A stretch of DNA of 64,000 bases from a virus, in IMG/VR virus record IMGVR_UViG_3300013132_000025, positions 65,641 to 129,640 of that record. One strand, written 5' to 3'. This document shows, piece by piece, positions 8,536 through 28,940 of the stretch. Positions within the stretch are counted from its first letter, which is position 1; the number at the start of each line of letters is the position of its first letter. The notes under the pieces were generated by a model, which was given only the letters and a program-made list of their open reading frames with translations, made no database searches and was not told the DNA's origin. A program made the translations under genes and the position numbers.

Positions 8536-9073
8536 TTAAATCCTTTCTATTTATAATCCATAAACATTCCTACAAGGATAAGGAAGAACCCTATCCCCAG
8601 AATGCATACCAATAAGAATCCCAATGCATCATGGATTGCCTGCATCAGTCATCATCCTGCCTTTTCTTAACTTCCCAGATCATGAGAAGTATCAGTATGA
8701 GTGGCACTCCCAGCCATACGATATATTGACCAAAGAAATACATACAACTACTCTACCAGAAATGCTCGCAGATTTCAAAGGGCTGGGACTCCTTTGCCAA
8801 TTCATACTTTGCGTTTTAGGGATAGGGGGGGTACCCTCATGAGCGGCAAGCGCTCCCAGCCCAAGCATCTATCGCACGCATCCTTCATGCATAATCCAAC
8901 TTGGGAAAATTGCTTACAGATTTGAGAGGAGGGGGACTCCCTTTGCAGATATGGGTACCCTTATATCGTAAGTGATATGGGGGGAGGGGGTGCTACCCTG
9001 TGTTTATACAGGAGGGCTTTGTAGTCACACTTGTATGTCACAAGTATGTAAGTTACATGGGGCCATGCTTCCC

Positions 9074-9484
9074 TTACTTATCCCATGCGGGGGATACCAG
9101 ATACATAACCAGCATGGTCACAATGCCAATCCATCCCAAGGCCCCGAGGAAGGCTGAGATGATGAGGCCCCCCATCATAGCCAGCAGGATAGCGGCCCCT
9201 ATCAACCCTGCGGAATAAAGCCCTAGGGTATTGGCCTTTCTCCTCACGGGGTTCTGCCTCTCCTTGTCCTTCTTGGCCTTCTCCCATGAGGAATCCCATG
9301 AACCTTTACCCCACCTAGAAACCTGTACGGGCACGCTGTTTACATGGGGAGACACGATAGGCCCACTATTCACCACTTCTCCCCCATCCTCCCCACTTGC
9401 ATCGGATGTGTTATCTATCCCATAACCAAGGGCTATACGACTCCCATCCATGTGGCTATAGTCTGGTGATGTGTGTGACGCCAT
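9074..9484 (-). CDS. Possible membrane protein (uncertain; lies in CCCAT-rich DNA)
   Basis: C-terminal hydrophobic helices; weak RBS. Confidence 0.3.
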   Translation of the reverse strand: MASHTSPDYSHMDGSRIALGYGIDNTSDASGEDGGEVVNSGPIVSPHVNSVPVQVSRWGKGSWDSSWEKAKKDKERQNPVRRKANTLGLYSAGLIGAAILLAMMGGLIISAFLGALGWIGIVTMLVMYLVSPAWDK

Positions 9485-9661
9485 TGTTACGTTACATCCT
9501 TCTGTAGTTGTATGTATGTGACATAAGTTATAGGGCCGCCGAATGGGGTTCCCATGCCGAGGCATAGCCGCCCCCTCTGCTGCGTTCTCCCCCATACTAT
9601 CATATGTGTCAAGGCCTCGCCGTGTGCGTTTGTACCGCCTGTCCTTCTATGGGCCATGAGC

Positions 9662-9945
9662 GTTGGATGAATCCATGAGAGGCTCTGTACGGGCCTCGGA
9701 TGGGCCGACCCATGCTAGGACATAGGCAAGGGGGTCGAAGGCCCGTGTAGGCCCTCCTGTGGCTTCCTGTGCATGGTGTGGTGGATGCCGCTCCCTGTAT
9801 CCGAGGAGGAAGGTGCATCTCTATCGGTCATGGCCGTTGGATGAATCGCTGAGAGGCTTTCTACGGGCCGCGCCTCGGGGTGCCCATGCTAGGACATACC
9901 CCTGCCCCTCGGAGGCCGTCCTGTGCCCTCCTGTGGCCTCTCAGC
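9662..9945. repeat. Two degenerate ~110-bp direct repeats (GTTGGATGAATC..GAGAGGC..TACGGGCC..CCCATGCTAGGACATA)
   Basis: Cores at 9662-9724 and 9836-9898; further degenerate copies at ~12781-12835 and ~13287-13333. Confidence 0.75.
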
Positions 9946-10063
9946 CCCGGTCCCCTGTATCCCGGTCCCCGGTCCTGCTCCCTGTCCGGGTGGATGCTCC
10001 CCGGAACGACGAAGGGCCACCCGAAGGTGGCCCCTGTCTCCCTGCCCGTTTGTACCCGGTGTG

Positions 10064-10261
10064 CTAGGCGGCTCGCTGGCGGGCCAGCGCGTCCTCGGCC
10101 TCAGCGCGAGTCGCGTAAACCGCTGCCCACGGCTCGCCCTTCATCTGCACGCTGACGAAGTAGGCGCTCTCGCCCAACAGCGCGTCACCGAGGTCGGTGT
10201 AAACGCACTCCATGGCGTGAGCCGGTGCGTGCTTGGCGATGAACTCGTCGGTGATACTCAT
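10064..10261 (-). CDS. Small early hypothetical protein
   Basis: MSITDEFIAK..., AAGGAG RBS, own promoter, downstream hairpin at ~10013-10035. Confidence 0.7.
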   Translation of the reverse strand: MSITDEFIAKHAPAHAMECVYTDLGDALLGESAYFVSVQMKGEPWAAVYATRAEAEDALARQRAA

Positions 10262-10301
10262 GGTGATTCTGCTCCTTGGTCGGTTTCGTCTTGCCCCCCT
10301 G

Positions 10302-10330
10302 TTTATACACCCTGCCCCGGATGGTGTCAA
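10302..10330 (-). promoter_or_regulatory. Sigma70-type promoter
   Basis: TTGACA-17-TATAAA. Confidence 0.65.
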
Positions 10331-10391
10331 GCGCCAACGAAAGAGGGGGCCTCGCGGCCCCCTCCCTGTCCAGCCCGACCACGACAGCGGG

Positions 10392-11423
10392 CTAGAACAC
10401 CGTCACCTCCTCCACCTCCTCCTCGGAGAGCAGGCCAGCCTCCACGATGAAGGGCGAGACCCCGGTAGCGTCCTTCCCGTAGATGGAGGTGCTGCTGACG
10501 AACAGGGCGTCCTCGGCGCGGGTCATGGCGACGTAGGCCATCCGGCGCTCCTCCTCCACCTCCTGCGGGGTCTTGGAGAGCCGGTGGGGCATGATGCCAT
10601 CGCTCATGCCAGCGACGAACACCACGGGCCATTCCAGGCCCTTGGAGCGGTGGATGCTCAGGACGGTCACGGCGTCCTTCTCGTTCTCGTCCCGGAGGTC
10701 AGAGGCCTTGGCCGTGATGTTCTCCTGCTCCATCACCCACGCGATGAAGGCCGCGAGGTCCGTGCCGAAGTCGGCCCCGGAAAGGGCTACGTCCTCCACG
10801 ATGGCGATGTTGCCGTCGCCGTTGGTCTCGGGCGTATCGTTGTCCTCCTCGGCTTGGTCACGCAGCCACGCGGCCACCCCGGAGTCCTCGGTGATGCCGC
10901 GCACAATGTCCACCACCGGGGTCGTGCCGACCTGCTCGCGCCACCTGCGAATGAGGGCGATGAACTCGTCCATGTTGGCCTTCTGCTTGCGGCTGATACG
11001 GGCCGAAGGCAGGCCGTGGAACGGGTCGCTCGGGGAGGCAGCGGCAGCCTGCCCAGCGACAGCCTTGCCGAGAAAGCGCGAGGGGGTGGCGAGGGCCGTG
11101 GTGAGGTCGTCGGCGGTGGCCGAACCCACCAGCACCTTCAGGTATGAGGTGATGGCCTGAGTCTGGTACCGCGCCCAAAACGACGGGGCACCGATGATGC
11201 GGAAGGTGAAGCCAGCGCGGATAAACGCGCCCTCCAGCGGGCGGGTCTGACGGTTGGTACGGACCAGCACGGCGATGCTGGCACCGGGCACCCCGGCGTC
11301 CCGGAGAGCCTTCACCTGCGATGCGATGGCGTCGGCCTCCTCGCCCTCGTCGCCGTAGTGCGCGTAGTTTACGGGCGAGAGCGCGGTCTCCGGGCTGATG
11401 GCGATGGTCTCGGTGTTCTCCAT
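10392..11423 (-). CDS. UvrD/PcrA-family helicase, C-terminal half (separate gene)
   Basis: IAVLVRTN, IIGAPSFW, VTVLSIHRSKGLEWPVVFV (motif V), EERRMAYVAMTRA (motif VI); own RBS AAGGAGCATCACC-ATG. Confidence 0.9.
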   Translation of the reverse strand: MENTETIAISPETALSPVNYAHYGDEGEEADAIASQVKALRDAGVPGASIAVLVRTNRQTRPLEGAFIRAGFTFRIIGAPSFWARYQTQAITSYLKVLVGSATADDLTTALATPSRFLGKAVAGQAAAASPSDPFHGLPSARISRKQKANMDEFIALIRRWREQVGTTPVVDIVRGITEDSGVAAWLRDQAEEDNDTPETNGDGNIAIVEDVALSGADFGTDLAAFIAWVMEQENITAKASDLRDENEKDAVTVLSIHRSKGLEWPVVFVAGMSDGIMPHRLSKTPQEVEEERRMAYVAMTRAEDALFVSSTSIYGKDATGVSPFIVEAGLLSEEEVEEVTVF

Positions 11424-11501
11424 GGTGATGCTCCTTCTCGTTGTGTGGGGAGATGGTATCAGAGATAGGGCCGGGGGCACAAGCCCCCGGCCCCTCCCCG
11501 T

Positions 11502-12563
11502 TTATCCGGCGATGAGGTGGGCCACCGGGAAGGCCTCGTCCTCGTCCTTGTTGGCCGTGACAGCCTTGCCCAGCCGCTCCTCGTTGTGAGCGATGAGGCG
11601 GGCCGCAGCGTCCACGATGGGGCGGCGAGAGCGGTAGTTGGTGCCGAGGTTCACCACCGTCACCTTCTCGCCCGTGGCCTGAGCGATGAACTCGGCAGGC
11701 ATCGCACCCCGGAATGAGTAGATGCTCTGGTCGTCGTCCCCGACGTAGGTGATGTTGGCGGTCTGCTCGGAGAGCAGGTTCATCAGGCCGAACTGGACCG
11801 GGTTGCAGTCCTGCGCCTCGTCCACCAGCACCCACTCCACGTTCCCGATAACGGCCTCGCGCACCTCGGGCTTACGGGCAGCGGCCAGCCCCTTGATTCC
11901 CATGCATGAGAAGGTGACGCTAATCTTGCCCGCCCTGCGGCGCTCCCAGCCCTTGCGGCCCCGGTACCAGCCCTCGGCCAGCAGGGTCTCCATCACCTCG
12001 TACACGCGGCCCACGATGGCACCGTCCGTGTCGAACTCGTCCAGCGTGGCGTAGAACTGCGACGGGGTGAGGTTGCAGTCCATGGCGCGAGACACGGCCT
12101 TGGCAATCTTGCCAGCCTTGCGCGGCATCTCCTTGTCCCCGAACTCGCCAGCGAGGTCGCGCCCGAAAGGGCAGTAGGTGGAGGCAGGCTCGATGATGCC
12201 CTTCACCATGCCCGTCACCTGTCCCGGCGTGAGCATGGAGCCACCCTTGGGGCGGGCGTCAATCCGGCGACCCTTCTCGGCCCGGTAGAACTTGTAGCCC
12301 AGCGAGTGCAGGGTGCCGATGTGGGCCAGCCCGTTTACAGCGTCCTCGCCCACCAGCCCGATGAGCCGCTGCTTCATCTCGGCAGCGGCAGCGGTGGTGA
12401 AGGTAGCCACGACGATGCTCTGCGGGGCGACACCATCGGTGATGAGGCGGGCGACTCGGTGAACCAGCACGCGGGTCTTGCCCGACCCCGCACCCGCGTT
12501 GATTACAAGCGGCCCCTCGCCGTGTGCGATGGCCTGCTGCTGCTCGGGACTCATGGTAGCCAT
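11502..12563 (-). CDS. UvrD/PcrA-family helicase, N-terminal half
   Basis: EQQQAI (Q), AGAGSGKT (I), TFTTAAA (Ia), DEAQD (II), VGDDDQSIYSFRGA (III), NYRS (IV); RBS GAGGAGGAG. Confidence 0.92.
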   Translation of the reverse strand: MATMSPEQQQAIAHGEGPLVINAGAGSGKTRVLVHRVARLITDGVAPQSIVVATFTTAAAAEMKQRLIGLVGEDAVNGLAHIGTLHSLGYKFYRAEKGRRIDARPKGGSMLTPGQVTGMVKGIIEPASTYCPFGRDLAGEFGDKEMPRKAGKIAKAVSRAMDCNLTPSQFYATLDEFDTDGAIVGRVYEVMETLLAEGWYRGRKGWERRRAGKISVTFSCMGIKGLAAARKPEVREAVIGNVEWVLVDEAQDCNPVQFGLMNLLSEQTANITYVGDDDQSIYSFRGAMPAEFIAQATGEKVTVVNLGTNYRSRRPIVDAAARLIAHNEERLGKAVTANKDEDEAFPVAHLIAG

Positions 12564-12609
12564 GTGATGCTCCTCCTCGTTCGGCGGGGTCCGTTCCCCG
12601 TGTGCAGGC

Positions 12610-12639
12610 ATCGTAGCACGACTGCCCCCGGATGCACAA
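12610..12639 (-). promoter_or_regulatory. Extended -10 sigma70-type promoter for the helicase
   Basis: TTGTGC-18-TACGAT with TGn; upstream GTACAAACGAGGCC. Confidence 0.6.
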
Positions 12640-12899
12640 GGCCTCGTTTGTACGGGGACCGCGCACCCGCACCTGCGGGCGGCTATCACACCTTGTCCCC
12701 GGATGCAAGTGCCCTCCTCGGGCGATTGTCACAAAGTCCTGTTCACAGTTGTAAAGTGCCTGCTCCGAGCAGGGCTTTCTCTGAGAGGGCTTGTCCGGGC
12801 CTCGGAGGGTGTCCCGAGGGCTACCACACCTAGGATTCAGAAAAGCCCATAGCCAAGCCATTCTTATGCTGTAAGAGACCCCCCTAGAATCTCCTTAGA

Positions 12900-13200
12900 G
12901 CGATTGTGCTGAGACTTTGTGCGAGATTGGCACAAGCGGTGACGGGGTGCTTGTGCGGATTCGGCACAATCTCAGTTGCTTGCAGTCGCAAGTGCTTGAT
13001 TGCACTCGCAACGACTTTGTAGCACTTTGTTACGAGAATCCCTGAAAAGTCTGAGGCTTTGTCGGGAATAAAACCCGGAGACCTCATTGGGATTCTTGTG
13101 CTGATTTCGCACAATCTCGTTGCAGTTGCAAGCACCTTGTCCAGATTTGCACAAGCCTCGCTCATGTAGGTATCCGCACAATGTTATTGCACCAGCAAGC
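12900..13200. repeat. Non-coding cluster of GCACAA/TTGTGC iteron-like motifs
   Basis: At least nine GCACAA/TTGTGC copies in both orientations, including GCACAATCTC twice (~12964, ~13109). Confidence 0.7.
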
Positions 13201-13470
13201 ATCGGCCCACCTCGTTTATACCGGGTGGTGGCCCTTACACGATTGAGAACCAGAAGTCAAGGGCTACGGTCCTCAGATTCGACGCTCTGAGAGGCGATAT
13301 ACGGGCCTCGGAGATGCCACCCCATGCTAGACCCTTCCCGAAGCATCCGAGGCCGTTCTAGGCCCCTTAGAATCGCTCCCAGCCCCTATCCCGGTCCACG
13401 GCCCCACCCCACCATGCAGAAAGGGGGCCTCTCGGCCCCCTCCCCGTTTACACCACCTGTCGCCCTCGGC

Positions 13471-13653
13471 CTAGTAGTCGTCCAGCACCTCCGAAAGAGC
13501 GGCGTGCAGGGCCTCCACCTCATCCCCGGTGAGGGCCACAGTCACCTGTGGGCCGTCCAGCGTGGGGTAGGCATGGAGCGTGATGCGAGCGTCCCCGTCA
13601 CCGAGGTTCTCGGTGAACACCACGGGGCCGTGGTTGGATTCGATGCGAGCCAT
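13471..13653 (-). CDS. Small acidic hypothetical protein
   Basis: 60 aa, high-GC codon usage, followed by a hairpin at ~13420-13443. Confidence 0.65.
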   Translation of the reverse strand: MARIESNHGPVVFTENLGDGDARITLHAYPTLDGPQVTVALTGDEVEALHAALSEVLDDY

Positions 13654-13656
13654 CGT

Positions 13657-14028
13657 TTACACCGCCTTCCGCTCGTCAGCCTCGCGGGCAGCGGCGAGAA
13701 GCGCCTCGGCAATCTCGCGTGCCTGCGCGGCGGTGAACTTGGCGTGAACATAGCCCTTCTCCATGGTGATGTTCCGCCCGTCCGGGTCATGCTCGGAGCC
13801 AGAGCGCCCCAGACCGAGGTCGGCCTTGGTGCCCAGCACCATGACCACGACCTCCCCGTACCTGTCTCCAAAGAGGGTGTCGGTCTGCCGGTGAGTCGTG
13901 AATGAGTCGTTCCGCTCACGGATGAGAGTGTCGTCACCAATGCCGTAGGTGTATGGCCCGGTCCCGACACCCTCCACGTTGTACGTCGCGTACTCGTCGG
14001 TGTCGTAAGTGTCAATACGGATGCTCAA
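13657..14028 (-). CDS. Hypothetical protein (TTG start, LSIRIDTY...)
   Basis: AAGGAG RBS; extended -10 TGCTACACT upstream. Confidence 0.65.
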   Translation of the reverse strand: MSIRIDTYDTDEYATYNVEGVGTGPYTYGIGDDTLIRERNDSFTTHRQTDTLFGDRYGEVVVMVLGTKADLGLGRSGSEHDPDGRNITMEKGYVHAKFTAAQAREIAEALLAAAREADERKAV

Positions 14029-14153
14029 AGGATTCTCCTTGTTTGAGGTTGAGCCGAGTGTAGCACGCCTGTCAAACGGATGCCCTGCCTCGTTTATACG
14101 GACAGGGGAGGTGAGGGGGAGGGGATGGACGGTCCCCTCCCCCTCGGGGAGAC

Positions 14154-14918
14154 CTACGCGCCGTGCGGGGCGGTGGTCTTGGGCCTGCGGGTCTTGCGGG
14201 CGACGACCTGCATACGCTGGTGGCAGCAGGGGCAGTACGGCGTGCCAACGGCTTCCAGCCACTTGGCCGTCATGTTCACGTTGTAAACGTCCTTGCCCTC
14301 ACCGCTGGGGTCGCAGCCACGGGTGCCGTCCTCCTGCTCGGTCTGACAGGCGACCTTGACCAGCCGGGTGGTCTGAGGCTTGTGGTTCACGTTCATGCCC
14401 TTGTGCGGGTACTCGCCCAGCGACTCGCGCAGGCGGGCAGTCAGTTCCACGAAGCGGTCCCCGGCGTAGGTGGCGGTGGGCTTACCGGCGAGGCCGATGG
14501 CGCGAATCATCTCCACGAACGGACCCTTGTGGCCGTTCTTGTTGCCGTCAATCGCGTGGACAATCTCGTGCGCGAGAACGTCCAGCACACCCGGCTCACG
14601 CTCGTCGAATCCGAGGTTGTTCTTGCGGCCCGTCTTGGGGCCGATGGTGTGGGCCAGCGCGGGCGACACGGTGATGTGGCGCACGTTGCCCTCCGGGGAG
14701 TTGGTCTCCGGGTAAGCCATGCCGACGACCGAACCCTTGCCGGTACGCTCGCCCAGCCACGCCCGCTTGTGCGAGAAGGACAGGTGAGCGGCGACGGTGT
14801 AGCCCTCGGGCATGGTGTAGCCAGCCTCGGCGAGAATGTCCAGCAGGCCGGTCGTCGCGGCGAGAATGTAGGACTCAGGCGTGTCGTGAACCTGAGCGTG
14901 AAGCGGTGAGTAACCCAT
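14154..14918 (-). CDS. SprT-like zinc metalloprotease with C-terminal Zn ribbon
   Basis: VLAHEIVHA..GHKGPF motif; C-terminal CQTE..C..CPCC. Confidence 0.8.
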   Translation of the reverse strand: MGYSPLHAQVHDTPESYILAATTGLLDILAEAGYTMPEGYTVAAHLSFSHKRAWLGERTGKGSVVGMAYPETNSPEGNVRHITVSPALAHTIGPKTGRKNNLGFDEREPGVLDVLAHEIVHAIDGNKNGHKGPFVEMIRAIGLAGKPTATYAGDRFVELTARLRESLGEYPHKGMNVNHKPQTTRLVKVACQTEQEDGTRGCDPSGEGKDVYNVNMTAKWLEAVGTPYCPCCHQRMQVVARKTRRPKTTAPHGA

Positions 14919-14951
14919 GATGCTGTCTCCTTGGTCGGTTGCTGCTAGGGC

Positions 14952-14980
14952 AGCGTATCAGTTGAGAGCGGGGAGTGCAA
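14952..14980 (-). promoter_or_regulatory. Sigma70-type promoter
   Basis: TTGCAC-17-TACGCT; a second promoter TTGTAT-17-CATAAT at 15019-15047. Confidence 0.6.
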
Positions 14981-15079
14981 GTGCCCGGTGTGGGCGGCTC
15001 GTTTATCCCTGCCCCGGCATTATGACAGAAGCGCCGGGGAGATACAAGGCCCTCTCGTTTATCCCTTGTTTCCTAGAGA

Positions 15080-15322
15080 TTAGAGGGCCTCTCGCTGGCT
15101 CTCCATGTAGCGGCGAGCCGTGGCCTCGTCCCCATAGACATTCCCTGCGTAGGACTGCCCATCGAAGTTCACGAGGGCAACGCCATACTCGGGCGTGGAC
15201 CCATCCAGCAGGTAGAGAGCGGCGTAACAACCCGCAGGGGCGGTAGGAACGGCCTCTACGAACACCGGGTTCCGCGCCTTCCATCGGGCTGGCGGGGTGA
15301 TGGTGATGGTTGCGATGCTCAT
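15080..15322 (-). CDS. Hypothetical protein
   Basis: MSIATITITPP..., GAGGAG RBS. Confidence 0.65.
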   Translation of the reverse strand: MSIATITITPPARWKARNPVFVEAVPTAPAGCYAALYLLDGSTPEYGVALVNFDGQSYAGNVYGDEATARRYMESQREAL

Positions 15323-15390
15323 TGGTGTCTCCTCGTCGTTGCTCATGGTGGGGAGCATATCACGGATGGAGGGCGGGGCATAGGCCCCGT

Positions 15391-15576
15391 TTATCCCTCC
15401 ACCCATGACCACACCTCGGGGTCGCTAGGATGCTGCTCGGGGAGGGTGGCAAGCCTAGGCCATACCCGCATCCCCTCCTGCTCCATGATGGAGAAGGCAG
15501 CGTTTACACGCGGCGTGATGTTCGTGAACTCACCAGCCCGGAGCCACTCCATGTACCGCTGCTCATCGCTCAACAT
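15391..15576 (-). CDS. Hypothetical protein
   Basis: MLSDEQRYMEW..., overlaps upstream gene end. Confidence 0.5.
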   Translation of the reverse strand: MLSDEQRYMEWLRAGEFTNITPRVNAAFSIMEQEGMRVWPRLATLPEQHPSDPEVWSWVEG

Positions 15577-15748
15577 AACCCAACTTCCTTTGGATAAGCC
15601 ACGCATCCAGAGCGTCCTGAATAAACGTGGTAATGTTCTCCTGCACCGTATCGAAGTCCACGGTGCCCTCCTGCTCGTTCCACTCTCGGATGTTGAGAGA
15701 AACCTCAACATCAATCGGGAGCGTAATCTGTCCATCTATCACAGCCAC
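15563..15748 (-). CDS. Small acidic hypothetical protein
   Basis: AAGGAGGA RBS. Confidence 0.55.
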   Translation of the reverse strand: MAVIDGQITLPIDVEVSLNIREWNEQEGTVDFDTVQENITTFIQDALDAWLIQRKLGYVER

Positions 15749-15906
15749 TCCTCCTTGTGCTTACGCTTGCGCGTGTACGTTGCGGGCACGCTGTAAACGC
15801 GGTCCTTGCGCGTGCGCCTGACCTGAATGCGAGTGCGCTCACGGATGCGGCGTGCCCGCTTAGGCTCAATGAACCTATCCTCGCTCTGCTGCTCCTGCTC
15901 GTACAC
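15739..15906 (-). CDS. 55-aa Arg/Lys-rich peptide (not in ORF track)
   Basis: GTG start with AGGAG RBS; ...RKDRVYSVPATYTRKRKHKEEWL. Confidence 0.6.
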   Translation of the reverse strand: MYEQEQQSEDRFIEPKRARRIRERTRIQVRRTRKDRVYSVPATYTRKRKHKEEWL

Positions 15907-16020
15907 GATTGTCTCCTGTTGGATAACTAACTAACTCGGAACTTTAGCAGATGAATAACTATCTATCTGCTAACCATCTAAACGATGATAAAGTCCATCG
16001 AAGTAACCATCTTGCCCTCA

Positions 16021-16194: not shown

Positions 16195-16267
16195 CTCATC
16201 TCCTTTGTTTGACTAGTGCCCCGGTACCGTATCAGGAAAGTACCGGGGCACACAAGTCCTCGTTTAT

Positions 16268-16477: not shown

Positions 16478-16500
16478 AGCCTCCTTTGTAGGCAGTTGGT

Positions 16501-20581: not shown

Positions 20582-20636
20582 TGTTAGCCTCCTTTATTGC
20601 TTGCTCGTCAAGTGTACCAGAACTGATTGTCCAATA

Positions 20637-20834: not shown

Positions 20835-20836
20835 GA

Positions 20837-21537: not shown

Positions 21538-21692
21538 CCATTTACACGGGCCGACTGCTTGGCCTGACGGCGCTCGGTGCGACGGCTCTTGTTGCCATGA
21601 ACCTGAGAGCGAGGAACAGCAATCCCTGTGTGACCAGAGATGCCAAGTTCCTGCCTCATGGCTCGGCGTTGCTTGTTGGTAAGGTTTCTCAT
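21528..21692 (-). CDS. 54-aa Arg/Lys-rich peptide (not in ORF track)
   Basis: MRNLTNKQRRAMRQELGISGHTGIAVPRSQVHGNKSRRTERRQAKQSARVNGWD; GGGAG RBS; promoter TTGTTC-17-TATGCT at 21720-21748. Confidence 0.6.
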   Translation of the reverse strand: MRNLTNKQRRAMRQELGISGHTGIAVPRSQVHGNKSRRTERRQAKQSARVNGWD

Positions 21693-21975
21693 CTTATCTC
21701 CCTTGATTGATGCCTAGGCAGCATACATCATAAGACTGACTAGAACAAGTGCCTGTTTATTTGATAAACTCATTCACAAGTTCGTTGAGGTCAATCTCGT
21801 CAATCCAATAACCGTACGAGCCTAGATACTGACCAGCAGCGTCGTAAACAGATGCACTACTGCCACCTCCATCGAACTAAACGAGTTCCAAAACCTGTTG
21901 AGGGTCGTCCTCGGAATGAACGTAAACGTGAGTAGCCTCAAACTCAGAGTAAGTAAAAGCCATTGTCTTTCTCCT

Positions 21976-22452
21976 TTATCCGTACACCACACTACCGAAA
22001 GCGGCAACCTGCACAATGCAGTCAGCCGCATCGCCGTCAATCATGCCGGGGTCGTTCTCCTGCACGGCACGACGAATGTAGCCGGTGATGGTGTTATTTG
22101 CCATATGACTGTTCTCATCCAGAAACTTCTGGATGGCCTCGGTGATGTTGGTGGCGTTGATGGTGTAAACATTGACCTCGCCACTACCCTCATCACGCTC
22201 AACAATGTCGGTGACAGTAACCTGCTGCCAGCGTTCGAAACCATCCGGGGTCTCAGCCTTCTTAGCAACAAGGTTATTCAGTTCCGCCCAATAGTAGCAG
22301 ACACCATAAGAGCCATCGAAAGCACTCACAAGAATGCAATCAACCATAGCCTCGGTGATAGGAAGTTGCGTGGTGACAACGCCAACAACCTTAGAGTTGT
22401 CGTACATCTCAGCCTCGGCTTCCAGCATCTCCCTCACATATGGGTCAGACAT
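21976..22452 (-). CDS. Conserved hypothetical phage protein
   Basis: AFDG..YYWA..IDGDAADCIVQVAAFGSVVYG; AAAGGAG RBS. Confidence 0.7.
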   Translation of the reverse strand: MSDPYVREMLEAEAEMYDNSKVVGVVTTQLPITEAMVDCILVSAFDGSYGVCYYWAELNNLVAKKAETPDGFERWQQVTVTDIVERDEGSGEVNVYTINATNITEAIQKFLDENSHMANNTITGYIRRAVQENDPGMIDGDAADCIVQVAAFGSVVYG

Positions 22453-22529
22453 TGTGTTTCTCCTTTCGTAGTTCATCTGAATAGATGATATCAAACAGAC
22501 CAACTCAGCACAAGAAAGTGTTTATACGA

Positions 22530-22808
22530 CTAGGCGCTAAACATCTGATGGTAATGCTCCTCGGGGGTGAGGATGTTTAGGCCGTAACGAAAATGACCGG
22601 GACCAAACCAGATTGGGTTACGGTACTCATCACTCATACGATGCCGCCGATAGTCATTCCAGATAGTCGCCGGGTGACTCCACAACTCGCAAACGTAATC
22701 CTCAATGTCATGGTAGTTTACACTATCCATAGAGATGATGTATTCCTCTACGAAATCCCAGAACAACTCATCAGACCTACCATCATATCCGCCAGCAACG
22801 TAAGCCAC
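22530..22808 (-). CDS. Hypothetical protein
   Basis: GAGGAGAG RBS, GTG start. Confidence 0.55.
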   Translation of the reverse strand: MAYVAGGYDGRSDELFWDFVEEYIISMDSVNYHDIEDYVCELWSHPATIWNDYRRHRMSDEYRNPIWFGPGHFRYGLNILTPEEHYHQMFSA

Positions 22809-22842
22809 AATCTCTCCTCTCCTATAAACTTGTTGATAAAAG

Positions 22843-22942
22843 CACCCCTAGCGGGAGTCGAACCCGCGATAAACCTCCGCATAAACATCACAAGCGTCCT
22901 TGTGAATGTCCCGGCGTCGTTGCCATCTAGACCATTAGGGGC
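22843..22942 (-). ncRNA. tRNA-like element with the anticodon arm replaced by a long hairpin
   Basis: Acceptor GCCCCTA/TAGGGGT, D-arm GTC-TAGATGGCAAC-GAC, T-arm GCGGG-TTCGACT-CCCGC; anticodon region CCG..ACATTCACAAG-GACG-CTTGTGATGT..CGG; no encoded CCA. Confidence 0.7.
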
Positions 22943-23244
22943 CACATTATAGACGGTTCCACACAGGGGCTTGATGCTCCTAAAAACAATGCCTCTGCCG
23001 TCACCGACAACCGAACCCTTAGTTAGTTTATACACAGATGGCCCCGAGCGACGGCTAGTTCTTAGATGGTGCCGAATAACACCACGCTCATCTATGTATG
23101 TTTAGACTGCTTATCATTTATGGCTCTCGCGCTCATCGTCCCACAATGGTTGATGAGATTTCCCGACCTACCAATCGGTTTCTTACGGAGATTCCTCCAC
23201 CCCACTAGGTCAAAGGTGGTAGCCCTCGCCTAGTCGGTCGTGAA
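22943..23244 (-). ncRNA. ~300-nt structured non-coding RNA between the hammerhead and the tRNA-like element
   Basis: No credible ORF. Stems ATACATAGATG/CATCTGTGTAT, GAGCG/CGCTC, TGGTG/CACCA, CTCATC/GATGAG, GACGG/CCGTC; possible pseudoknot ACTAGG/CCTAGT plus CCACC/GGTGG. Confidence 0.5.
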
Positions 23245-23296
23245 AGCCGTTGATGCCCGTAGGCATTTCGTCCTCTAAGGACTCATCAGAACGGCT
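23245..23296 (-). ncRNA. Type I hammerhead ribozyme
   Basis: AGCCGTT-CTGATGA-GTCCT TAG AGGAC-GAAA-TGCC TACG GGCA-TC-AACGGCT; intact core, AUC cleavage triplet, predicted cut between 23252 and 23251. Confidence 0.9.
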
Positions 23297-23301
23297 AAAA
23301 A

Positions 23302-23451
23302 CTACAGTTCTATCGTGGAAGCACCATCAGTCTGCAACTCCATGACCCACCCCTCACGCCACTCATTTATAGCACAAGCCTCACCAAAAGACGCATAAGG
23401 ACCGAAAGCGGTATATCCATCTGAAAGATTACCAGCGAGAAAGACAAACAT
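23302..23451 (-). CDS. 49-aa hypothetical protein (not in ORF track)
   Basis: MFVFLAGNLSDGYTAFGPYASF..., AGGAG RBS; stop 5 nt before the hammerhead. Confidence 0.55.
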   Translation of the reverse strand: MFVFLAGNLSDGYTAFGPYASFGEACAINEWREGWVMELQTDGASTIEL

Positions 23452-23503
23452 TCTTACTCCTCTCTTTGATTACTCTACGAGAATACCACCTCGGCTCAGA
23501 AAG

Positions 23504-23755
23504 TCAAGAGCCTGAATAAACGTAGGATATCTGAGCCTCTACCTCATCAGCATGACGCTCATCAAGAAACCGATTGTCCGGTGCGCCCCATATGCTCTGC
23601 CCCATGATGTTAGAAGCCGCAGCCTTGGAAGCATCCAGAAGCGAAGTCACTAGAGACATAGCATCCTTTGGGTCCATACGAAGTATAAACCCGTTACGTT
23701 CGTTACCTGAATGGATAACTACTTCATCTTTGTAAACCGCAACAAACAAACTCAT
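23504..23755 (-). CDS. Hypothetical protein
   Basis: GAGG RBS; promoter TTGACA-17-TAGTAT at 23792-23820. Confidence 0.6.
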   Translation of the reverse strand: MSLFVAVYKDEVVIHSGNERNGFILRMDPKDAMSLVTSLLDASKAAASNIMGQSIWGAPDNRFLDERHADEVEAQISYVYSGS

Positions 23756-23838
23756 ACCGTTGCCTCGTCTATCTGCTTGCCACACACCTAGATACTACAG
23801 GCCCCCTCCCCCAATGTCAAGGGAAGGGGGCAAGGTGT

Positions 23839-24336
23839 TTAGATGGCAGCGCCCATGAAGTCCTCATTCGGCACCTCAACAACACCACCGACAATCTCCA
23901 CCTCCACAAAGGCGGGGACAGGCTCGGAAAAAGAAGCGGTGGTAGCCTCGCCGGTCAGCACCTTAGCAACCTTGTCCAGCCTGTCACGAAGGGCCTTGTT
24001 CTCAGCCTCCACAGCCTCTAGACGCTGAATAAACGAGATGCTAACAGTCTCATCATCCATAGACTCGCTAATCTTGCCCTCAATAATCCACTCAACGCGA
24101 GTGTCGAAGTCCTCAATGTCGTCGGACTCAAAGGTGCGCCAACGCAGCGCCTCCTCAATCTGGTCTGAGATATCAAGGTTGTTGTCAAGGTATTCCTGAA
24201 CACGACCGTCAATATCTGCCTCATCAACGACATTCTCAGCAACATCTCGGATAAACGACTCGTTGTTGTAAACCGCATCGGCGGCCTTCTCATCAACGAG
24301 GGTCTCAATGTCAGCGGGCCAATCCTCAAAACTCAT
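23839..24336 (-). CDS. Highly acidic helical/coiled-coil protein
   Basis: Very D/E-rich, periodic; AAAGGAG RBS. Confidence 0.7.
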   Translation of the reverse strand: MSFEDWPADIETLVDEKAADAVYNNESFIRDVAENVVDEADIDGRVQEYLDNNLDISDQIEEALRWRTFESDDIEDFDTRVEWIIEGKISESMDDETVSISFIQRLEAVEAENKALRDRLDKVAKVLTGEATTASFSEPVPAFVEVEIVGGVVEVPNEDFMGAAI

Positions 24337-24400
24337 GGTATCTCCTTTAGTTGATTGCTTCCTGAGAAGCATAGCATGGGGTGTTGCAGAAAAGCAACTG

Positions 24401-24805
24401 CTAGTGTAAACGCTCAGGCTCGTCCAAAGACTCCTCTAGGGAGAGGCGAGCGGTAGTGAGAGCCGGTGGCTCGTAATCAGTCCCGTAGCCGCTTACGCTA
24501 AGAGTAGCGTTGATAAGAGCGCGAATCTCGTCCTCGTACAGATAGAAAGGAACCTGCCCCTCATCCAAAACTTCCTCCCACTCCTCACTAATGAGCGACA
24601 AAGACACTATCTGCTCAATGTTGAGCATTACCTCATACTCAGGAGCAGAACGGATAAACGTCTTTCGTGCTTTGATAGTCTGCAACGAAGTAACGTGATT
24701 GGCGAAGTCCCTCAATCTATGCGCGCCATTCTTGTCGTTGCCCCAACCACTATAAAGAGTCTGTCCATCAGTTGTGCGAATCTGAATGTAACTCGTCTTG
24801 CTCAT
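24401..24805 (-). CDS. Hypothetical protein
   Basis: GGAGG RBS. Confidence 0.6.
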   Translation of the reverse strand: MSKTSYIQIRTTDGQTLYSGWGNDKNGAHRLRDFANHVTSLQTIKARKTFIRSAPEYEVMLNIEQIVSLSLISEEWEEVLDEGQVPFYLYEDEIRALINATLSVSGYGTDYEPPALTTARLSLEESLDEPERLH

Positions 24806-24973
24806 CTAAACCTCCACCTCAATGTTGTTAGCCGCACCACGAACATCCCATCCGTAGTACCCCTCAATCATAGAAGCGGCCTCATCAATAATGTCATCTC
24901 GCTCTCCCGAAGGGGGCGTGATGATTGCAGTAGAAAGAACAAAGTAGTCTCCCACAAAGGTAACAGTAGTCAT

Positions 24974-25252
24974 TTACTTGTCCTCCTCTCGGACCCAAAA
25001 AAAGTATTCCTCAATCTCCACAAGGTTGTCTGTTCCACAGTATAGGTCGTAAATCGCAAGATTCCTTGCTTCCAGATTGTCAGCCGCCGATGCAGGGCTG
25101 TCGTCATACTCCTTGAGAAACAAATCAAGCGCAAACAAACGCGCTTGCTTCCAGATATAATCACGAGCATCCATCTCGTTATCAAAAGAACGGACTCCCC
25201 AATCATCCTCAGAATGAGGAACTGCTCCGATATAGTTCCATCCTGCCAGCAT
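24974..25252 (-). CDS. Acidic hypothetical protein
   Basis: AAGGAGG RBS; promoter TTGTGC-17-TAGTCT at 25286-25314. Confidence 0.6.
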   Translation of the reverse strand: MLAGWNYIGAVPHSEDDWGVRSFDNEMDARDYIWKQARLFALDLFLKEYDDSPASAADNLEARNLAIYDLYCGTDNLVEIEEYFFWVREEDK

Positions 25253-25322
25253 TCCGCCTCCTTTGGTCAATCAACTTACACGAACAGACTATCAGACTGC
25301 CTTGGACAGCACAAGTCCCTGT

Positions 25323-25670
25323 TTAGTCGTCGTAGTCGCAGGGAAAAGACTCCTTCTCCAAGTGATAAAGGTAGTCTCCACGGTCTGCTAGGTAGTCGTC
25401 ATAGTCAGCCTCAGCCATCTCACAACAGGTATCAAAAGTGAGTTCCATAGGAGTCCAGAAGTCTCCATCCTCCTTCTCCCCATGCACCTCGGTAATCATG
25501 CGGTATTCCTCCATGACCTCTTGCTCGGTGCCGATGAAGTATGGGATTTCATAGTCCTTGACTATCTTGCCTGTCTCCGGGTCTGTCTCGTACAAACCCC
25601 ACAGGCCCTTATCCGAGATTTCCTCGGCCTGCTTCTGGAAAGCGTACTCAGGCGGGTCATACCATGACAT
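25323..25670 (-). CDS. Acidic hypothetical protein
   Basis: MSWYDPPEY..., GGGGAG RBS. Confidence 0.6.
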   Translation of the reverse strand: MSWYDPPEYAFQKQAEEISDKGLWGLYETDPETGKIVKDYEIPYFIGTEQEVMEEYRMITEVHGEKEDGDFWTPMELTFDTCCEMAEADYDDYLADRGDYLYHLEKESFPCDYDD

Positions 25671-25868
25671 TACAGATTCTCCCTTGGAACGGGTACACAC
25701 TTGGGGCAAAATGGAAGCCCCCCGGCCCAAGTTATTGCCTTGGTTGCTGGGTTGATAAACACCACATTATCCTCATTTACGATGTGACCACACATACACT
25801 TGATTGTGTCAGTTGCGGTATCTTTACTTATATTATCCATCATCTAACTCTCCTCTCCTTACCTTATC

Positions 25869-25988
25869 TTACCGGGCGTGCCAAAAGTTAGGCTTAGGCA
25901 CGTTGGTCTTGTGAGGCTTGCTTACCCCCATCTTGGTAGCGCGAACCTTGCGGCGCCTGTTAGTAACCGAACGACGAACTTTCTTCAT
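25869..25988 (-). CDS. 39-aa basic peptide (not in ORF track)
   Basis: MKKVRRSVTNRRRKVRATKMGVSKPHKTNVPKPNFWHAR; AAAGGAG RBS; promoter TTGACT-17-TAGAGT at 26029-26057. Confidence 0.55.
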   Translation of the reverse strand: MKKVRRSVTNRRRKVRATKMGVSKPHKTNVPKPNFWHAR

Positions 25989-26048
25989 GTTGTCTCCTTT
26001 GATTGGTGTCTATCTTACTTACCGTGTAACTCTACCACCTAACTCACA

Positions 26049-26231
26049 TCAAGTCAAATCATCGTCGTCATATTCATCTATAACTATAAACTCTCGGACA
26101 AACATAAGCAATATCCCTGAAACAATAGCCCACAAACCCGCGTTCCAATCTCCCGAGAAAAAGTAATAGGCCCCGAAAAAGAAACACACAAGACCAACAA
26201 ACAGGGATAGGATTCTAACTAACTCAGTCAC
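26049..26231 (-). CDS. Small two-TM membrane protein
   Basis: Two hydrophobic helices, acidic tail. Confidence 0.55.
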   Translation of the reverse strand: MTELVRILSLFVGLVCFFFGAYYFFSGDWNAGLWAIVSGILLMFVREFIVIDEYDDDDLT

Positions 26232-26550
26232 TCTTGACTATCTCTTTCCATACAAGATATGCTGCTTTGCTTGCGTTGTCCAGACGAGACCACCTTTCCC
26301 TATAGAACCTTACCTTTGTCTGAATAGCATGGTAAGACTCCATTTGTACCTCTACCCGGAGAACATCTTTACTACCGGGGAAGTCAGGAACCTTGGGCTT
26401 TCGGATGATGCTTGCAACATCCTTTGCCACAAGGTATTCCCGGTGAGCCTCATTGGAACGACGAGAGATTACCTTCCACGCCCTATAGAACAGTTCTGCA
26501 TTCTTTGGGCTAGGCTCGGACATAACGAGTACCTCGGCGCTCTCCCTCAA
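26224..26550 (-). CDS. Hypothetical protein
   Basis: Basic, helical, in operon. Confidence 0.5.
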   Translation of the reverse strand: MRESAEVLVMSEPSPKNAELFYRAWKVISRRSNEAHREYLVAKDVASIIRKPKVPDFPGSKDVLRVEVQMESYHAIQTKVRFYRERWSRLDNASKAAYLVWKEIVKSD

Positions 26551-27355
26551 TGTTTACACGCTCATCATTCTGTAGGACGTAACGAACACTCGTCCACTCG
26601 GTAGTTGAGAGGCCGAAATGCAAGATGAGTTCGGCCTTAGAAGTCGGCCCATTGTCCTCAATAAACTGCACAATGACATTCATCACTTCTGTATCAACAG
26701 TCGGCGTCTTGTCCTCAATAACCACTTCATAAGTTCGGCCCGGAACTGTGTAGTTGGTCCCACGCTTAGTCCCGTTCTTTACTACCTTACCAGACTCAAC
26801 AGCGGCATTGATTACATCTGAATAAATAGACGCGGGGATAAGGTCTCCAATAGCCTTCTTGGTTACAGGCTGGTCTGCCTCCTCAACAAAGCGAATAAAC
26901 TCGTCACGCACCTCGGAGATACGCTCGGCCTTCTCATCGCTCTGCCTACGACCGGGCTTGTAACGAAGCACACGGCCATACTCATCAACAGGTGCCCCGC
27001 GTGCAATCGCGGCTTGGTCTGCACGCTCCTGACACTTAGAAATCCACCCCTCCAAATAATCCTCACGGTGCTGCACAGCCTCGTCCTTGGGGAGAGAACG
27101 AAGCAACTCCATACGATTGTCGTGAACCTCGTTTAGTTCACCGAAGGGTAGAGTAATCCTGTCGTTGTCGGATGTAAGAATAGTTGCTTCCTTATCCTGC
27201 GCTGCAAGAACAAGAGCGTATCTAAATCCACCCTCGCTGCTCCAAAAACTGATTGTATCGCCACGAACCGGCGCTTCTTTAGTCTGCATATCATCTCCCT
27301 CCTTTGGCTGAATATTACGCTTGCTCAGTTTGCTGCTTGCTCGCTTCTTACCCAT
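26510..27355 (-). CDS. DNA-binding protein with two C-terminal winged-HTH repeats
   Basis: Wings GTKRGTNY and GERRGTRY; alternative start at 27289. Confidence 0.6.
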   Translation of the reverse strand: MGKKRASSKLSKRNIQPKEGDDMQTKEAPVRGDTISFWSSEGGFRYALVLAAQDKEATILTSDNDRITLPFGELNEVHDNRMELLRSLPKDEAVQHREDYLEGWISKCQERADQAAIARGAPVDEYGRVLRYKPGRRQSDEKAERISEVRDEFIRFVEEADQPVTKKAIGDLIPASIYSDVINAAVESGKVVKNGTKRGTNYTVPGRTYEVVIEDKTPTVDTEVMNVIVQFIEDNGPTSKAELILHFGLSTTEWTSVRYVLQNDERVNIEGERRGTRYVRA

Positions 27356-27368
27356 ATAAGTTACCTAC

Positions 27369-27593
27369 CTAACTATTCGTTGTCAAGGCCTCATCGAAAA
27401 TCGCGTTTAGACTGTCTGCGATAATATCGCGCTCCTTGGTCAGACACGGCGAACATTGAGCCTTGGGGTTATACCGAGAGAGGCGGGCATCGCATCGGGT
27501 ACAATGCCGCGCCTCCGCAGGCTTATCATCTACAAAGTCGAAGGGCACCATATCACCCATCATGTTTGCAGGAATAATCTCATCAAATCGCAT
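27369..27593 (-). CDS. Small zinc-finger protein
   Basis: CTRCDARLSRYN...CSPC. Confidence 0.6.
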   Translation of the reverse strand: MRFDEIIPANMMGDMVPFDFVDDKPAEARHCTRCDARLSRYNPKAQCSPCLTKERDIIADSLNAIFDEALTTNS

Positions 27594-27602
27594 AATGGCT
27601 CC

Positions 27603-27860
27603 TTAGAAAGACTCGGGGTACCAAGTCGAAAGAACCGAGATAATCTGGTTGAGAGAGAAAGAACCGAACTGATGGTCGGTAAATGCCTCAGTCTCAGTAA
27701 TGTCCTCAACCTTCCAATCCTGCTTACGCCCACGCTTACCCGTACCGTGGATACGAAAGCGCCCGTCCTTGGACTCATAGAGTCCCGGCTGGACACGATG
27801 AATAGCGCGAGTACGCGGGCGACCCCGGCCCTTCTTAGTCTCAACAGTTGCAGTAGTCAT
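27603..27860 (-). CDS. AT-hook-containing small protein
   Basis: KKGRGRPRT; AAAGGAG RBS; promoter TTGCAT-17-TAAGTT at 27899-27927. Confidence 0.6.
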   Translation of the reverse strand: MTTATVETKKGRGRPRTRAIHRVQPGLYESKDGRFRIHGTGKRGRKQDWKVEDITETEAFTDHQFGSFSLNQIISVLSTWYPESF

Positions 27861-27954
27861 ATGCATCTCCTTTAGGTCGTATTGACGTTGTACCAAGTAA
27901 CTTATCACAGGTACTATAGAGATGCAAGTGTATATGTAATATTATTGCGGGGGA

Positions 27955-28010
27955 GTATAAACGCTGACAGCATATAAATCCCGACATAATGGGGGCGTAT
28001 AAACGCTGAC
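27955..28010. repeat. Direct repeat GTATAAACGCTGAC x2 (42-bp period)
   Basis: Copies at 27955-27968 and 27997-28010. Confidence 0.8.
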
Positions 28011-28445
28011 CTACGAAAGTTCATCGTCAAGAGGCGGGGCGTCGGGGATAGAGCGGATAAACTCCTCAACCAACGCTTCTTCTTGCTCACCGACCTTTTC
28101 ATCCACGCGCTTTTTAAACTCACTTACCCGTGACTGATATTCCTCGGGGAAAAGCGACTGCATCTGCTCAATAGAAATAATAATAGTCGCCATGGCGCTG
28201 GCAAAGTCAGAAAGAGATGATACAACGGTGCGCCCATTTGGCGTTTCCACAATCTCTGCCAACTCATCTGGGGGAATCTTTGACATTCTTACGTCCACCT
28301 CTGAACCAAGGGCGCTAAGGAGGTTGTGAATACCCTCAATGACCACAATCGCCATATCTTCCATGGTCATTTCTTTGGCGATTTCCCAATTTGCATTGAC
28401 AATCATTCTTAGTTTGTCAGGCATATCATTGTTTTTATTATGCAT
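28011..28445 (-). CDS. Hypothetical protein
   Basis: 144 aa. Confidence 0.6.
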   Translation of the reverse strand: MHNKNNDMPDKLRMIVNANWEIAKEMTMEDMAIVVIEGIHNLLSALGSEVDVRMSKIPPDELAEIVETPNGRTVVSSLSDFASAMATIIISIEQMQSLFPEEYQSRVSEFKKRVDEKVGEQEEALVEEFIRSIPDAPPLDDELS

Positions 28446-28492
28446 AATTAACTAACTAACTTTCTAATAGAGAATTTATCTAACTAACTAAC

Positions 28493-28669
28493 TTAAATCA
28501 TACCCATTTTACGGAACGGAGATGGGCAACCTACAGGGCAAAACCCGTCCATTTCTATACGCTCACCGTGAGGGCAGATAAGAAAGAAGTCATATGGGTC
28601 AGAGCCTTCTATTTCCCAACCATCAGGCAAAATATCTTGCAAAATATCTATCAAACTATCTTCACTCAT
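28493..28669 (-). CDS. 58-aa Cys-rich protein (not in ORF track)
   Basis: ...LICPHGERIEMDGFCPVGCPSPFRKMGMI. Confidence 0.6.
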   Translation of the reverse strand: MSEDSLIDILQDILPDGWEIEGSDPYDFFLICPHGERIEMDGFCPVGCPSPFRKMGMI

Positions 28670-28940
28670 CTTCGCCTTCCTGCAAAGAAATTAACAAACT
28701 ATCTATCTGACTATTTACTGCTGCAAGATTATCCATCATTGCTTTCTTAATCTTATCAGAACGGGCTTCATGAAACAACTGCATAAGTTCGTCCCTTTCC
28801 AGAAATAGATCAATTAACTTATTTGATAGATATAACTTTTGTTCCGCTATTTCTTTCTCTTCAAGCGCCTCTGCCATCTTTTTCCATAGATGTTCTGCTT
28901 GATAAAAGCGCCACGGGTCTTTTTCTTCTTTTTCACTCAC
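28662..28940 (-). CDS. Hypothetical coiled-coil protein
   Basis: 92 aa in coupled operon. Confidence 0.6.
   Translation of the reverse strand: MSEKEEKDPWRFYQAEHLWKKMAEALEEKEIAEQKLYLSNKLIDLFLERDELMQLFHEARSDKIKKAMMDNLAAVNSQIDSLLISLQEGEDE

Follow-up and report, generated by a model that had tools for sequence, protein, structure and literature searches.

The DNA window analysed here (64,000 nt) comprises bases 65,641-129,640, i.e. the last 64 kb, of the IMG/VR virus record IMGVR_UViG_3300013132_000025, a 129,640-bp phage contig from lake-water metagenomes that we refer to as G000. Within this window we found a GC-rich block of about 20 kb that is completely free of GATC and of several further short words which are frequent in the rest of the genome, and these gaps ("deserts") have their left edges near a short conserved non-coding element. 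The data support that the block was purged by selection, and not by composition or ancestry. With a probability of about 0.6 we read the pattern as restriction avoidance limited to the DNA that is exposed first, in analogy to the first-step-transfer (FST) region of phage T5 and the leading region of T7-like phages. Several restriction targets would then be purged from the block because it is exposed to host endonucleases before phage counter-measures act.

Deserts of short words in a 20-kb block

The initial annotation, made from the letters of the window, had reported that GATC is absent between sites at 8678 and 28808 and common in both flanks, with about 80 sites expected. This proved exact. 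All 185 GATC sites of the window lie outside the interval (20,126 nt), for which base composition predicts 76.7 and a Markov model 83.7 sites, so that the count of zero is nowhere near expectation; for both flanks jointly the 185 observed sites compare with 155.5 (composition) and 217.4 (Markov) expected ones. The gap of 20,130 bp is followed by a runner-up of 2,042 bp in the window, and among the 396 GATC sites of the genome no other gap exceeds 2.1 kb. A largest-gap scan, run over every 4-mer of the genome and later over longer and degenerate words, gave the following deserts, listed with the number of sites genome-wide:

8679..28807, GATC-free interval, 20,129 nt, flanking sites at 8678 and 28808
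8668..28113, TTAA-free interval, gap of 19,447 nt (846 sites)
8909..28387, AATT-free interval, gap of 19,480 nt (1,001 sites)
8775..28859, TTSAA-free interval, gap of 20,086 nt (532 sites); the site at the left edge lies within the boundary element described below
8584..25981, GAAGA/TCTTC-free interval, gap of 17,399 nt (635 sites); shared left anchor, right end about 2-3 kb earlier
7163..36978, CASTG-free interval, 29.8 kb, reaching past the right end of the block (57 sites)

The proposed purging of a GATC-specific target thus holds as a selective purge but was too narrow, as AATT, TTAA, TTSAA and GAAGA/TCTTC are missing as well. Outside the block (about 110 kb) 396 GATC, 995 AATT and 841 TTAA sites remain. 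To the right of the block CASTG is found 0 times where 5.3 sites are expected, a count equally low in 2 of 300 shuffles. A second group of words is missing from the genome as a whole, with no AGCT, no CTGCAG and one CCWGG site. This sole CCWGG is found at position 10634, within the C-terminal open reading frame (ORF) of a helicase. Enzymes that presumably fit the avoided words are MboI/DpnII, MluCI, MseI, AluI, TaqI, EcoRII/BstNI, PstI, AgsI, MboII and TspRI.

Selection at synonymous positions

As null model we used synonymous-codon shuffling, in which the protein and the codon usage of each ORF are kept, for 37-38 ORFs of the block and 22 flank genes. The palindrome counts, a check that had been proposed in the initial annotation, gave zero for four words in the block (observed/expected):

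Block: GATC 0/57; TTAA 0/22.5; AATT 0/16.6; AGCT 0/31; TCGA 17/63
22 flank genes: GATC 130/138; TTAA 166/181; AATT 223/238; AGCT 0/119; TCGA 16/76

The lowest GATC count among 500 shuffles of the block was 39, and GAAGA/TCTTC is likewise missing from the block ORFs (0 observed, 19.5 expected). The five most depleted of the 136 4-mers include GATC, TCGA, AGCT, TTAA and AATT, all of them palindromes. Short palindromes are therefore depleted against a codon-aware null while non-palindromes of the same composition stay unaffected, which is the mark of Type II site avoidance. The substitutions can be followed at single codons. The initial annotation had noticed that Ile changes from ATC to ATT after G, and indeed after a G-ending codon ATC is used in 0 of 65 cases in the block (ATT 50, ATA 15) and in 133 of 213 elsewhere (ATT 70, ATA 10; Fisher p = 6e-23). 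All 59 Asp codons of the block that precede a C-starting codon are GAC, compared with 123 GAT and 171 GAC elsewhere (p = 6e-13). Neither context dependence is present in the 22 flank genes.

A cause unrelated to restriction, namely avoidance of AT-rich or bendable words, for example as an escape from nucleoid-protein silencing or as an adjustment to host codon usage, with the deserts as a by-product, would agree with a GC content raised by 10-25 points, with AAAA/TTTT missing over 7.9 kb and with the rarity of A/T third-position codons in the block. We regard it as very improbable and largely refuted. GATC is not AT-rich, and the remaining AT-only 4-mers in the block are found at 50-130% of the null (ATAT 20/29, TATA 22/27, ATAA 89/91, TAAA near expectation) where the palindromes TTAA and AATT are at zero; the set of depleted words moreover changes between relatives with an equal GC shift, as described below. 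From the codon-shuffle depletion, the normal counts of AT-only words and the palindromic nature of the top words it follows that there are two tiers of avoidance of the restriction type, one genome-wide and one confined to the block.

Deserts are anchored at a conserved element

The left border of the block is non-coding, the right border diffuse. The features of the two borders are:

8537..9073, non-coding, repeat-rich left border
8769..8792, plus strand, conserved non-coding boundary element, copy 1, CAGATTTCAAAGGGCTGGGACTCC
8917..8940, plus strand, boundary element, copy 2; GATATGGGGGGAGGGGG comes after it at 8973-8990
9596..10391, second non-coding stretch with two tandem GC-rich repeats (9646-9766 and 9820-9940, 174-nt spacing)
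28446..28492, minus strand, right (diffuse) border, AT-rich and intergenic, with GTTAGTTAGTTA twice, upstream of the first ORF entering the deserts

The element, CAGATTT-N-GGGACTCC with a G-run downstream of it, is present twice each in G000 and in the related genome G001 and once in the more distant G004, at the border only and always on the plus strand. In all three lineages the deserts begin -478 to +240 nt from the element, or within 2.3 kb of it in the case of the sparse words CASTG and ACTGG. The right edges vary by motif and by lineage, from +9.5 to +28 kb overall. In G000 they are found at +17.2 kb for GAAGA, at +19.3 to +20.1 kb for TTAA, AATT, GATC and TTSAA and at +28.2 kb for CASTG, in G004 at +9.5 kb for TTAA and +9.7 kb for GATC. 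The deserts are thus anchored on the left at the element, and avoidance is two-tiered, bound to position and variable between lineages. We take the constancy of the left edge, in contrast to the shifting right edges, as a hint that exposure starts at the element.

A search of IMG/VR for the element gave no contig beyond those of the known lineages. A looser search of metagenomes yielded 10 loci, namely G004 itself, three contigs of true relatives (L088, L090, L094), in all of which the motif switch at the element is reproduced, and six high-GC contigs. The latter contain AGCT and CCWGG and were taken as chance matches. One unrelated contig of GC 0.64 (L092:81-104) shows a 29-nt match to the element and a similar downstream G-run 80 nt from the contig start; it is either a chance match or a member of a wider element family.

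The GC-rich repeat of the second non-coding stretch, with a 43-nt core that reads TGAGAGGC...CCCATGCTAG on the plus strand, occurs in four copies of the same orientation in the part of the block with the highest GC content, two of them in tandem and the other two as cores at 12782-12824 and 13288-13330. Its RNA folds are not unusually stable compared with shuffles (z between -1.8 and +0.6). An Rfam scan of 7500-30000 gave no convincing match, the sole hit being an 18-nt tmRNA fragment at 22851-22868 (18.5 bits, gathering score 47). Three repeat pairs flanking the block (D7, I4, I9) are within chance for 22.5 kb and were discarded. At the right border a promoter-like match is found at 28466-28437, and just upstream of 28446-28492 small ORFs contain four overlapping GCAAAATATCT-like repeats with 12-nt spacing (28623-28716).

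Relatives share the block but differ in the purged words

Related lineages were identified in IMG/VR, namely G001 (110 kb) and the pair G004/G005, whose portal is 86% identical. G001 is colinear with G000 at 68-85% nucleotide identity and spans the junction of the two contig ends of G000. It has the same GC-rich block and the same genome-wide absences, and at the same map position it carries deserts confined to the block for AATT (20,216 nt) and TTSAA (21,081 nt), while GATC is depleted by about half (32/71) and TTAA is near neutral (25/32). In G004/G005, where the block has a GC content of about 0.50 compared with 0.31-0.40 in the backbone, the deserts concern GATC (10.2 kb) and TTAA (9.5 kb). 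Genome-wide, all lineages lack AGCT, CTGCAG and CCWGG, apart from the one CCWGG kept by G000, and show a depletion of TCGA. That the block deserts keep their position and differ in their motif sets is consistent with an arms race in which restriction systems act on a single part of the genome, as has been described for T5/BF23 and Autographiviridae.

The turnover is also visible site by site. In 32 pairs of block orthologues none of the 26 GATC sites of G001 is common to G000, and 12 of them differ only synonymously, compared with 28 of 57 sites common to both in the flanks. As control words within the block, CATG and CTAG have 16 of 44 and 4 of 18 sites in common, respectively.

In G004 the order and strand of the flank genes are retained, and the homologues of the block ORFs are located on the opposite (plus) strand in shuffled order, for which reason the null was computed on plus-strand ORFs; the helicase is missing from this block. 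The 10 kb next to the element are purged (GATC 0/24.6, CASTG 0/10.9), whereas the early-gene homologues at 26.4-30.7 kb keep their sites (GATC 11/13.6, AATT 21/19.9). Avoidance thus follows position and not gene identity. A second GC-rich island (0.52) is found at about 66,000-69,000 in G004 and about 24,000-30,000 in G005, with 7 GATC sites in 3 kb; as GATC is kept there, high GC content alone does not remove it. Strains diverged by 3-10% are present in wastewater, river and freshwater runs (X3-X5). Their variants within 15080-23200 of the window include replacements, deletions and back-joins, e.g. at 16486-16906 and 15080-15309, and in run X5 the lineage is abundant, with a contig depth of around 200.

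A chimeric assembly, which the initial annotation had named among the outcomes that would overturn its reading, is excluded, as three independent assemblies are colinear over both borders and AGCT is absent on either side. A biological mosaic, in which the block was recombined in from a higher-GC phage living under different restriction systems so that the deserts record history and not present function, is quite unlikely. The compositional shift is sharp, and the block is plastic, being inverted, shuffled and without helicase in G004 and subject to indels and rearrangements in freshwater strains, both of which speak for such an import. However, AGCT, CCWGG and CTGCAG are equally absent in and out of the block (AGCT 0/31 and 0/119), and therefore both parts have been under one long-term regime. 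Furthermore, the pattern is kept in three lineages diverged to 40-90% protein identity with differing block-only motifs, the G004 homologues beyond the 10 kb next to the element have normal site numbers, and the gene with the highest GC content has no close donor, its best match being 37% identical.

The block resembles an early region

In agreement with the initial annotation the interval carries a GC shift and dozens of small ORFs. GC content is 0.36-0.42 in the flanks, peaks at 0.667 at 10-12 kb and falls gradually to about 0.48 at 27 kb. The coding features of the block and its promoters are:

11502..12689, minus strand, N-terminal ORF of a UvrD-like helicase, GC 0.67, third-position GC about 0.9
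10392..11480, minus strand, C-terminal ORF of the helicase, with an in-frame stop between it and the N-terminal ORF
12884..28445, minus strand, array of about 35 small early-type ORFs, mostly acidic (isoelectric point 4.1-4.9), of unknown function
24368..24397, minus strand, sigma-A-type promoter TTGNNN-18-TATGCT, followed by ribosome-binding site and ATG
21720..21748, minus strand, sigma-A-type promoter
18974..19002, minus strand, sigma-A-type promoter
16889..16917, minus strand, sigma-A-type promoter
14952..14980, minus strand, sigma-A-type promoter with -10 box TACGCT

The helicase is only 33-37% identical to its best full-length homologues and has no close cellular relative. Its split is not an error, since the junction bears stops in G001 too (L047:2076-4361, minus strand). 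Altogether the block contains about 40 ORFs with net charges as low as -29, those at 23839-24372 and 25323-25730 being among the most acidic; of 42 ORFs searched, 5 matched a Pfam family and 12 a PHROG family, the PHROG families being almost without exception of unknown function. Apart from the helicase the only named function is a weak 29-residue methyltransferase-like match, and searches of the PDB sequences with three block proteins gave nothing usable.

The description of the segment as rich in host promoters is borne out in part. All five well-formed TTGNNN-17/18-TA[TC]GCT promoters are on the coding strand and precede a ribosome-binding site and an ATG, but a generic sigma-70 scan gave a modest excess of 18 sites in the block over 11.6 +/- 3.4 in shuffles (44 compared with 43.9 in a flank). 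Because of its roughly 40 small acidic ORFs of unknown function and its sigma-A-like promoters, the assignment of the block as early-type is supported, as judged from its predicted genes and signals. Codons decoded by the 11 tRNAs of the phage are 2-11 times rarer inside the block. The raised GC content and the scarcity of these codons fit genes that are translated before phage tRNAs exist.

A race in time without staged entry is an alternative reading of the avoidance. With the genome entering in a single step, survival until inhibitors and repair (RecA, exonucleases, helicase) are available would matter only for the templates of the earliest genes, all other cuts being repaired. G000 encodes RecA, two exonucleases and the UvrD-like helicase, the block is a predicted early transcription unit with promoters of its own, and the relatives of the terminase may be headful packagers. 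Nevertheless we consider such a race unlikely, given that in the rest of the genome some 2,200 sites (GATC, AATT, TTAA) would be cut equally fast and need repair, that avoidance tracks the distance to the non-coding element and not membership among the early genes, and that experiments with T5 and Autographiviridae link the effect to the order of entry.

Termini and order of entry

The initial annotation offered a long terminal repeat as one explanation of the segment. As an addition to first entry, the block would be a direct repeat of the kind found in T5 or SPO1, situated at either end of the genome, collapsed in assembly and carrying a host-takeover module. The FST DNA of T5 and BF23 is a terminal repeat of 9.7-10 kb (PMC10644984), the block has many small early ORFs and promoters, and CheckV rates the 110-kb G001 as 70% complete, implying an expected size above 129.6 kb. 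In run X2, where depth was taken from assembled contigs at about 7x and the stretch compared (8400-28399) barely reaches the flanks, a contig lying 62% past the right border has a depth of 7.74 and an 8.2-kb contig wholly inside the block one of 7.37 (range inside 7.37-8.27), whereas a twofold repeat would predict about 0.7 times the inside depth for the border contig. This disfavours a collapsed repeat weakly. As the contig breaks also do not coincide with both borders and the block length differs twofold between lineages, we hold a terminal repeat to be an improbable addition.

If restriction avoidance in first-exposed DNA is the cause, polar, staged genome entry would be its simplest physical basis. 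Entry of the DNA would begin at the conserved element of the left border or close to it, where the genome may have either a fixed end or a pac site from which a short series of headfuls is packaged. Host RNA polymerase would then transcribe the small early genes from the sigma-A-type promoters, and early products, presumably among the many acidic proteins, would shield the remaining 110 kb or so. Targets which the phage cannot neutralise (AGCT, CTGCAG, CCWGG and most TCGA) would have been removed from the whole genome. The high acidity of the block proteins is suggestive only with regard to an anti-restriction role.

Several points weigh against this reading. Which DNA enters first, where the genome ends and whether there are inhibitors are all matters that we infer, and the ORF sets behind the counts were picked mechanically, without a gene caller. 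In the 42 block ORFs there was no Pfam or PHROG match to anti-restriction families (Ocr, ArdA or similar) or to homologues of T5 A1/A2. G000, G001 and G004 run through both borders, and G001 bridges the contig ends of G000, which implies a map that is circular or has terminal redundancy. Three contig ends (G005, L088, L094), among eight contigs with the full or partial element, lie within 55 nt of it. All three fall at G-runs, where the assembly may have dropped out, and L088 and L094, which belong to a single assembly, share about 100 nt of overlap, as is typical of a graph break; we do not count these ends as evidence of a physical terminus. The portal and the terminase of G000 are about 40% and 36% identical, respectively, to their counterparts in cluster C mycobacteriophages, Gordonia phages and Rhodococcus phage E3. 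Cluster C mycobacteriophages and phage E3 have been described as circularly permuted headful packagers. Random headful ends would make leading-region avoidance irrelevant (PMC12455610). Finally, if the left border leads, the early genes are co-oriented with entry in G004 (plus strand) and transcribed against it in G000 and G001, which rules out T7-style transcription-driven entry for the latter two.

Starting from restriction avoidance in first-exposed DNA, we tentatively suggest, at less than even odds, that the nested, left-anchored deserts may serve as a ruler of polar entry in this lineage of freshwater phages of myovirus type and about 130 kb. The G-rich element would mark the leading end or packaging start, and the first 10-20 kb would be a recoded block, free of the Type II targets of local hosts, higher in GC content, independent of phage tRNAs and open to inversion and reshuffling provided that it remains beside the element. 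The right limits (GAAGA < TTAA, AATT, GATC, TTSAA < CASTG) would record when each enzyme is neutralised.

Seen as a whole, the selected purge, the early-type nature of the block and the block-restricted deserts in relatives agree with part of the interpretation given in the initial annotation; its single GATC target was too narrow. The positional effect can be seen from sequence alone and is extreme, with five to seven short words wholly missing over 10-20 kb, different words in close relatives, and uncultured phages widespread in freshwater as carriers. Bioinformatic studies of site avoidance have ignored the location of sites (PMC12455610, 2025), and in the literature we found no report of this lineage or of a codon- and GC-recoded, site-free early block. 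Should the deserts indeed be a ruler of entry, metagenomic phage genomes would directly show which regions are injected first and what restriction repertoire uncultured hosts possess. If the finding holds, leading regions could be mapped in such genomes, it could be deduced which restriction specificities hosts deploy and which of them a phage can or cannot neutralise, and the approximately 35 small acidic early proteins would be a concentrated candidate set for new anti-restriction activities.

Other features of the genome

Nearly all genes of G000 are located on the minus strand. The window encodes the portal, the large terminase, DNA polymerase III alpha, RecA, DnaB-, DnaG- and DnaC-like proteins, ThyX and a deoxynucleoside monophosphate kinase, and the genome beyond it baseplate J, tail-collar fibres, ribonucleotide reductase and 11 tRNAs; baseplate J points to virion genes of the myovirus type. 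A Pfam scan of 128 ORFs across the genome found no DNA methyltransferase, and megablast against a phage collection gave zero matches for the block and zero for one flank.

The 11 tRNA genes (genome positions 17835-22926, outside the window) lie inside the sole plus-strand gene cluster, next to genes for ribonucleotide reductase, dUTPase, dCMP deaminase, a SpoU methylase and UDP-galactopyranose mutase (Glf). Apart from one Met tRNA the set decodes A/U-ending codons (Asn, Gly-UCC, Arg-UCU, Val-UAC, Leu-CAA, Ile-UAU, Leu-UAA, Glu, Gln, Lys). This set and the codon usage of the block are the sole basis for the idea that the host may be a higher-GC bacterium. The UDP-galactopyranose mutase is 50-55% identical to assorted Firmicutes and Fusobacteria proteins and is uninformative on the host. 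Two glycosyltransferase-like genes are situated amid structural genes (genome 50506-52450) and, together with Glf, hint at glycan modification of virion proteins or DNA.

Just outside the left flank of the block lies an ORF of 3,216 aa (window 2-5242, minus strand, continuing at genome 61232-70882). It has a ParB_N-like domain at residues 2484-2559, an N-terminal PHROG of unknown function and nothing else recognisable, is only 37% identical to its G001 counterpart and could be a virion or injected protein.

Comparison with known systems

A close likeness is to the FST region of T5 and BF23, phages which are restricted only if sites fall into the FST repeat, a leading block of small early genes making up 8-10% of the genome, and which tolerate sites elsewhere (PMC10644984). 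In the same way the block of G000 lacks sites that the remainder of its genome retains. In T5 and BF23 a long stretch of non-coding DNA rich in repeats borders the FST region (PMC10644984), and the stretches 8537-9073 and 9596-10391 form a non-coding, repeat-bearing border in G000, an analogy of form only to the site of the T5 injection stop signal. The genomes are similar in size (122 kb and 130 kb) and both carry tRNA genes, and in T5, too, the protective factor is unknown according to PMC10644984. In contrast to T5, the block shows no homology to the pre-early proteins detectable with Pfam or PHROG, a terminal repeat is weakly disfavoured, and the block makes up 15% of the genome in G000 (about 8% in G004). 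At least five words of 4-5 bp are fully absent and not a few 6-bp sites, GC content and codon usage are strongly shifted, and the virion genes are of myovirus type with portal and terminase related to actinobacteriophage cluster C.

In Autographiviridae (Murciavirus, T7) only the motifs of the first-injected region matter for sensitivity, and this leading region is variable and carries anti-defence genes, which we count as a further likeness (PMC12455610). The early genes of G004 are directed away from the candidate leading end, as they are in T7, whereas those of G000 and G001 point towards it. The Autographiviridae case moreover concerns a Type I motif in podoviruses of 40 kb with known fixed ends, compared with Type II-like palindromes in a genome of about 130 kb here. 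The leading regions of conjugative plasmids are likewise depleted of restriction targets and enriched in anti-defence genes (cited in PMC12455610), but these are another kind of element, which enters the cell as single-stranded DNA. The host-takeover module of SPO1 is a cluster of small early genes with strong early promoters in the terminal repeat of that phage; the block of G000 has small ORFs and promoters, but a terminal repeat is weakly disfavoured.

Genome-wide avoidance of palindromes is exemplified by Staphylococcus phage K, which is free of GATC. The absence of AGCT, CTGCAG and CCWGG and the depletion of TCGA in all lineages correspond to this pattern, to which G000 adds a second tier confined to one block. 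Leading-region restriction avoidance as such is of a known kind; new is its unusually stark form here, in which multiple complete deserts, a recoded GC-rich early block, a conserved border element, inversion between lineages and turnover of motifs between close relatives come together.

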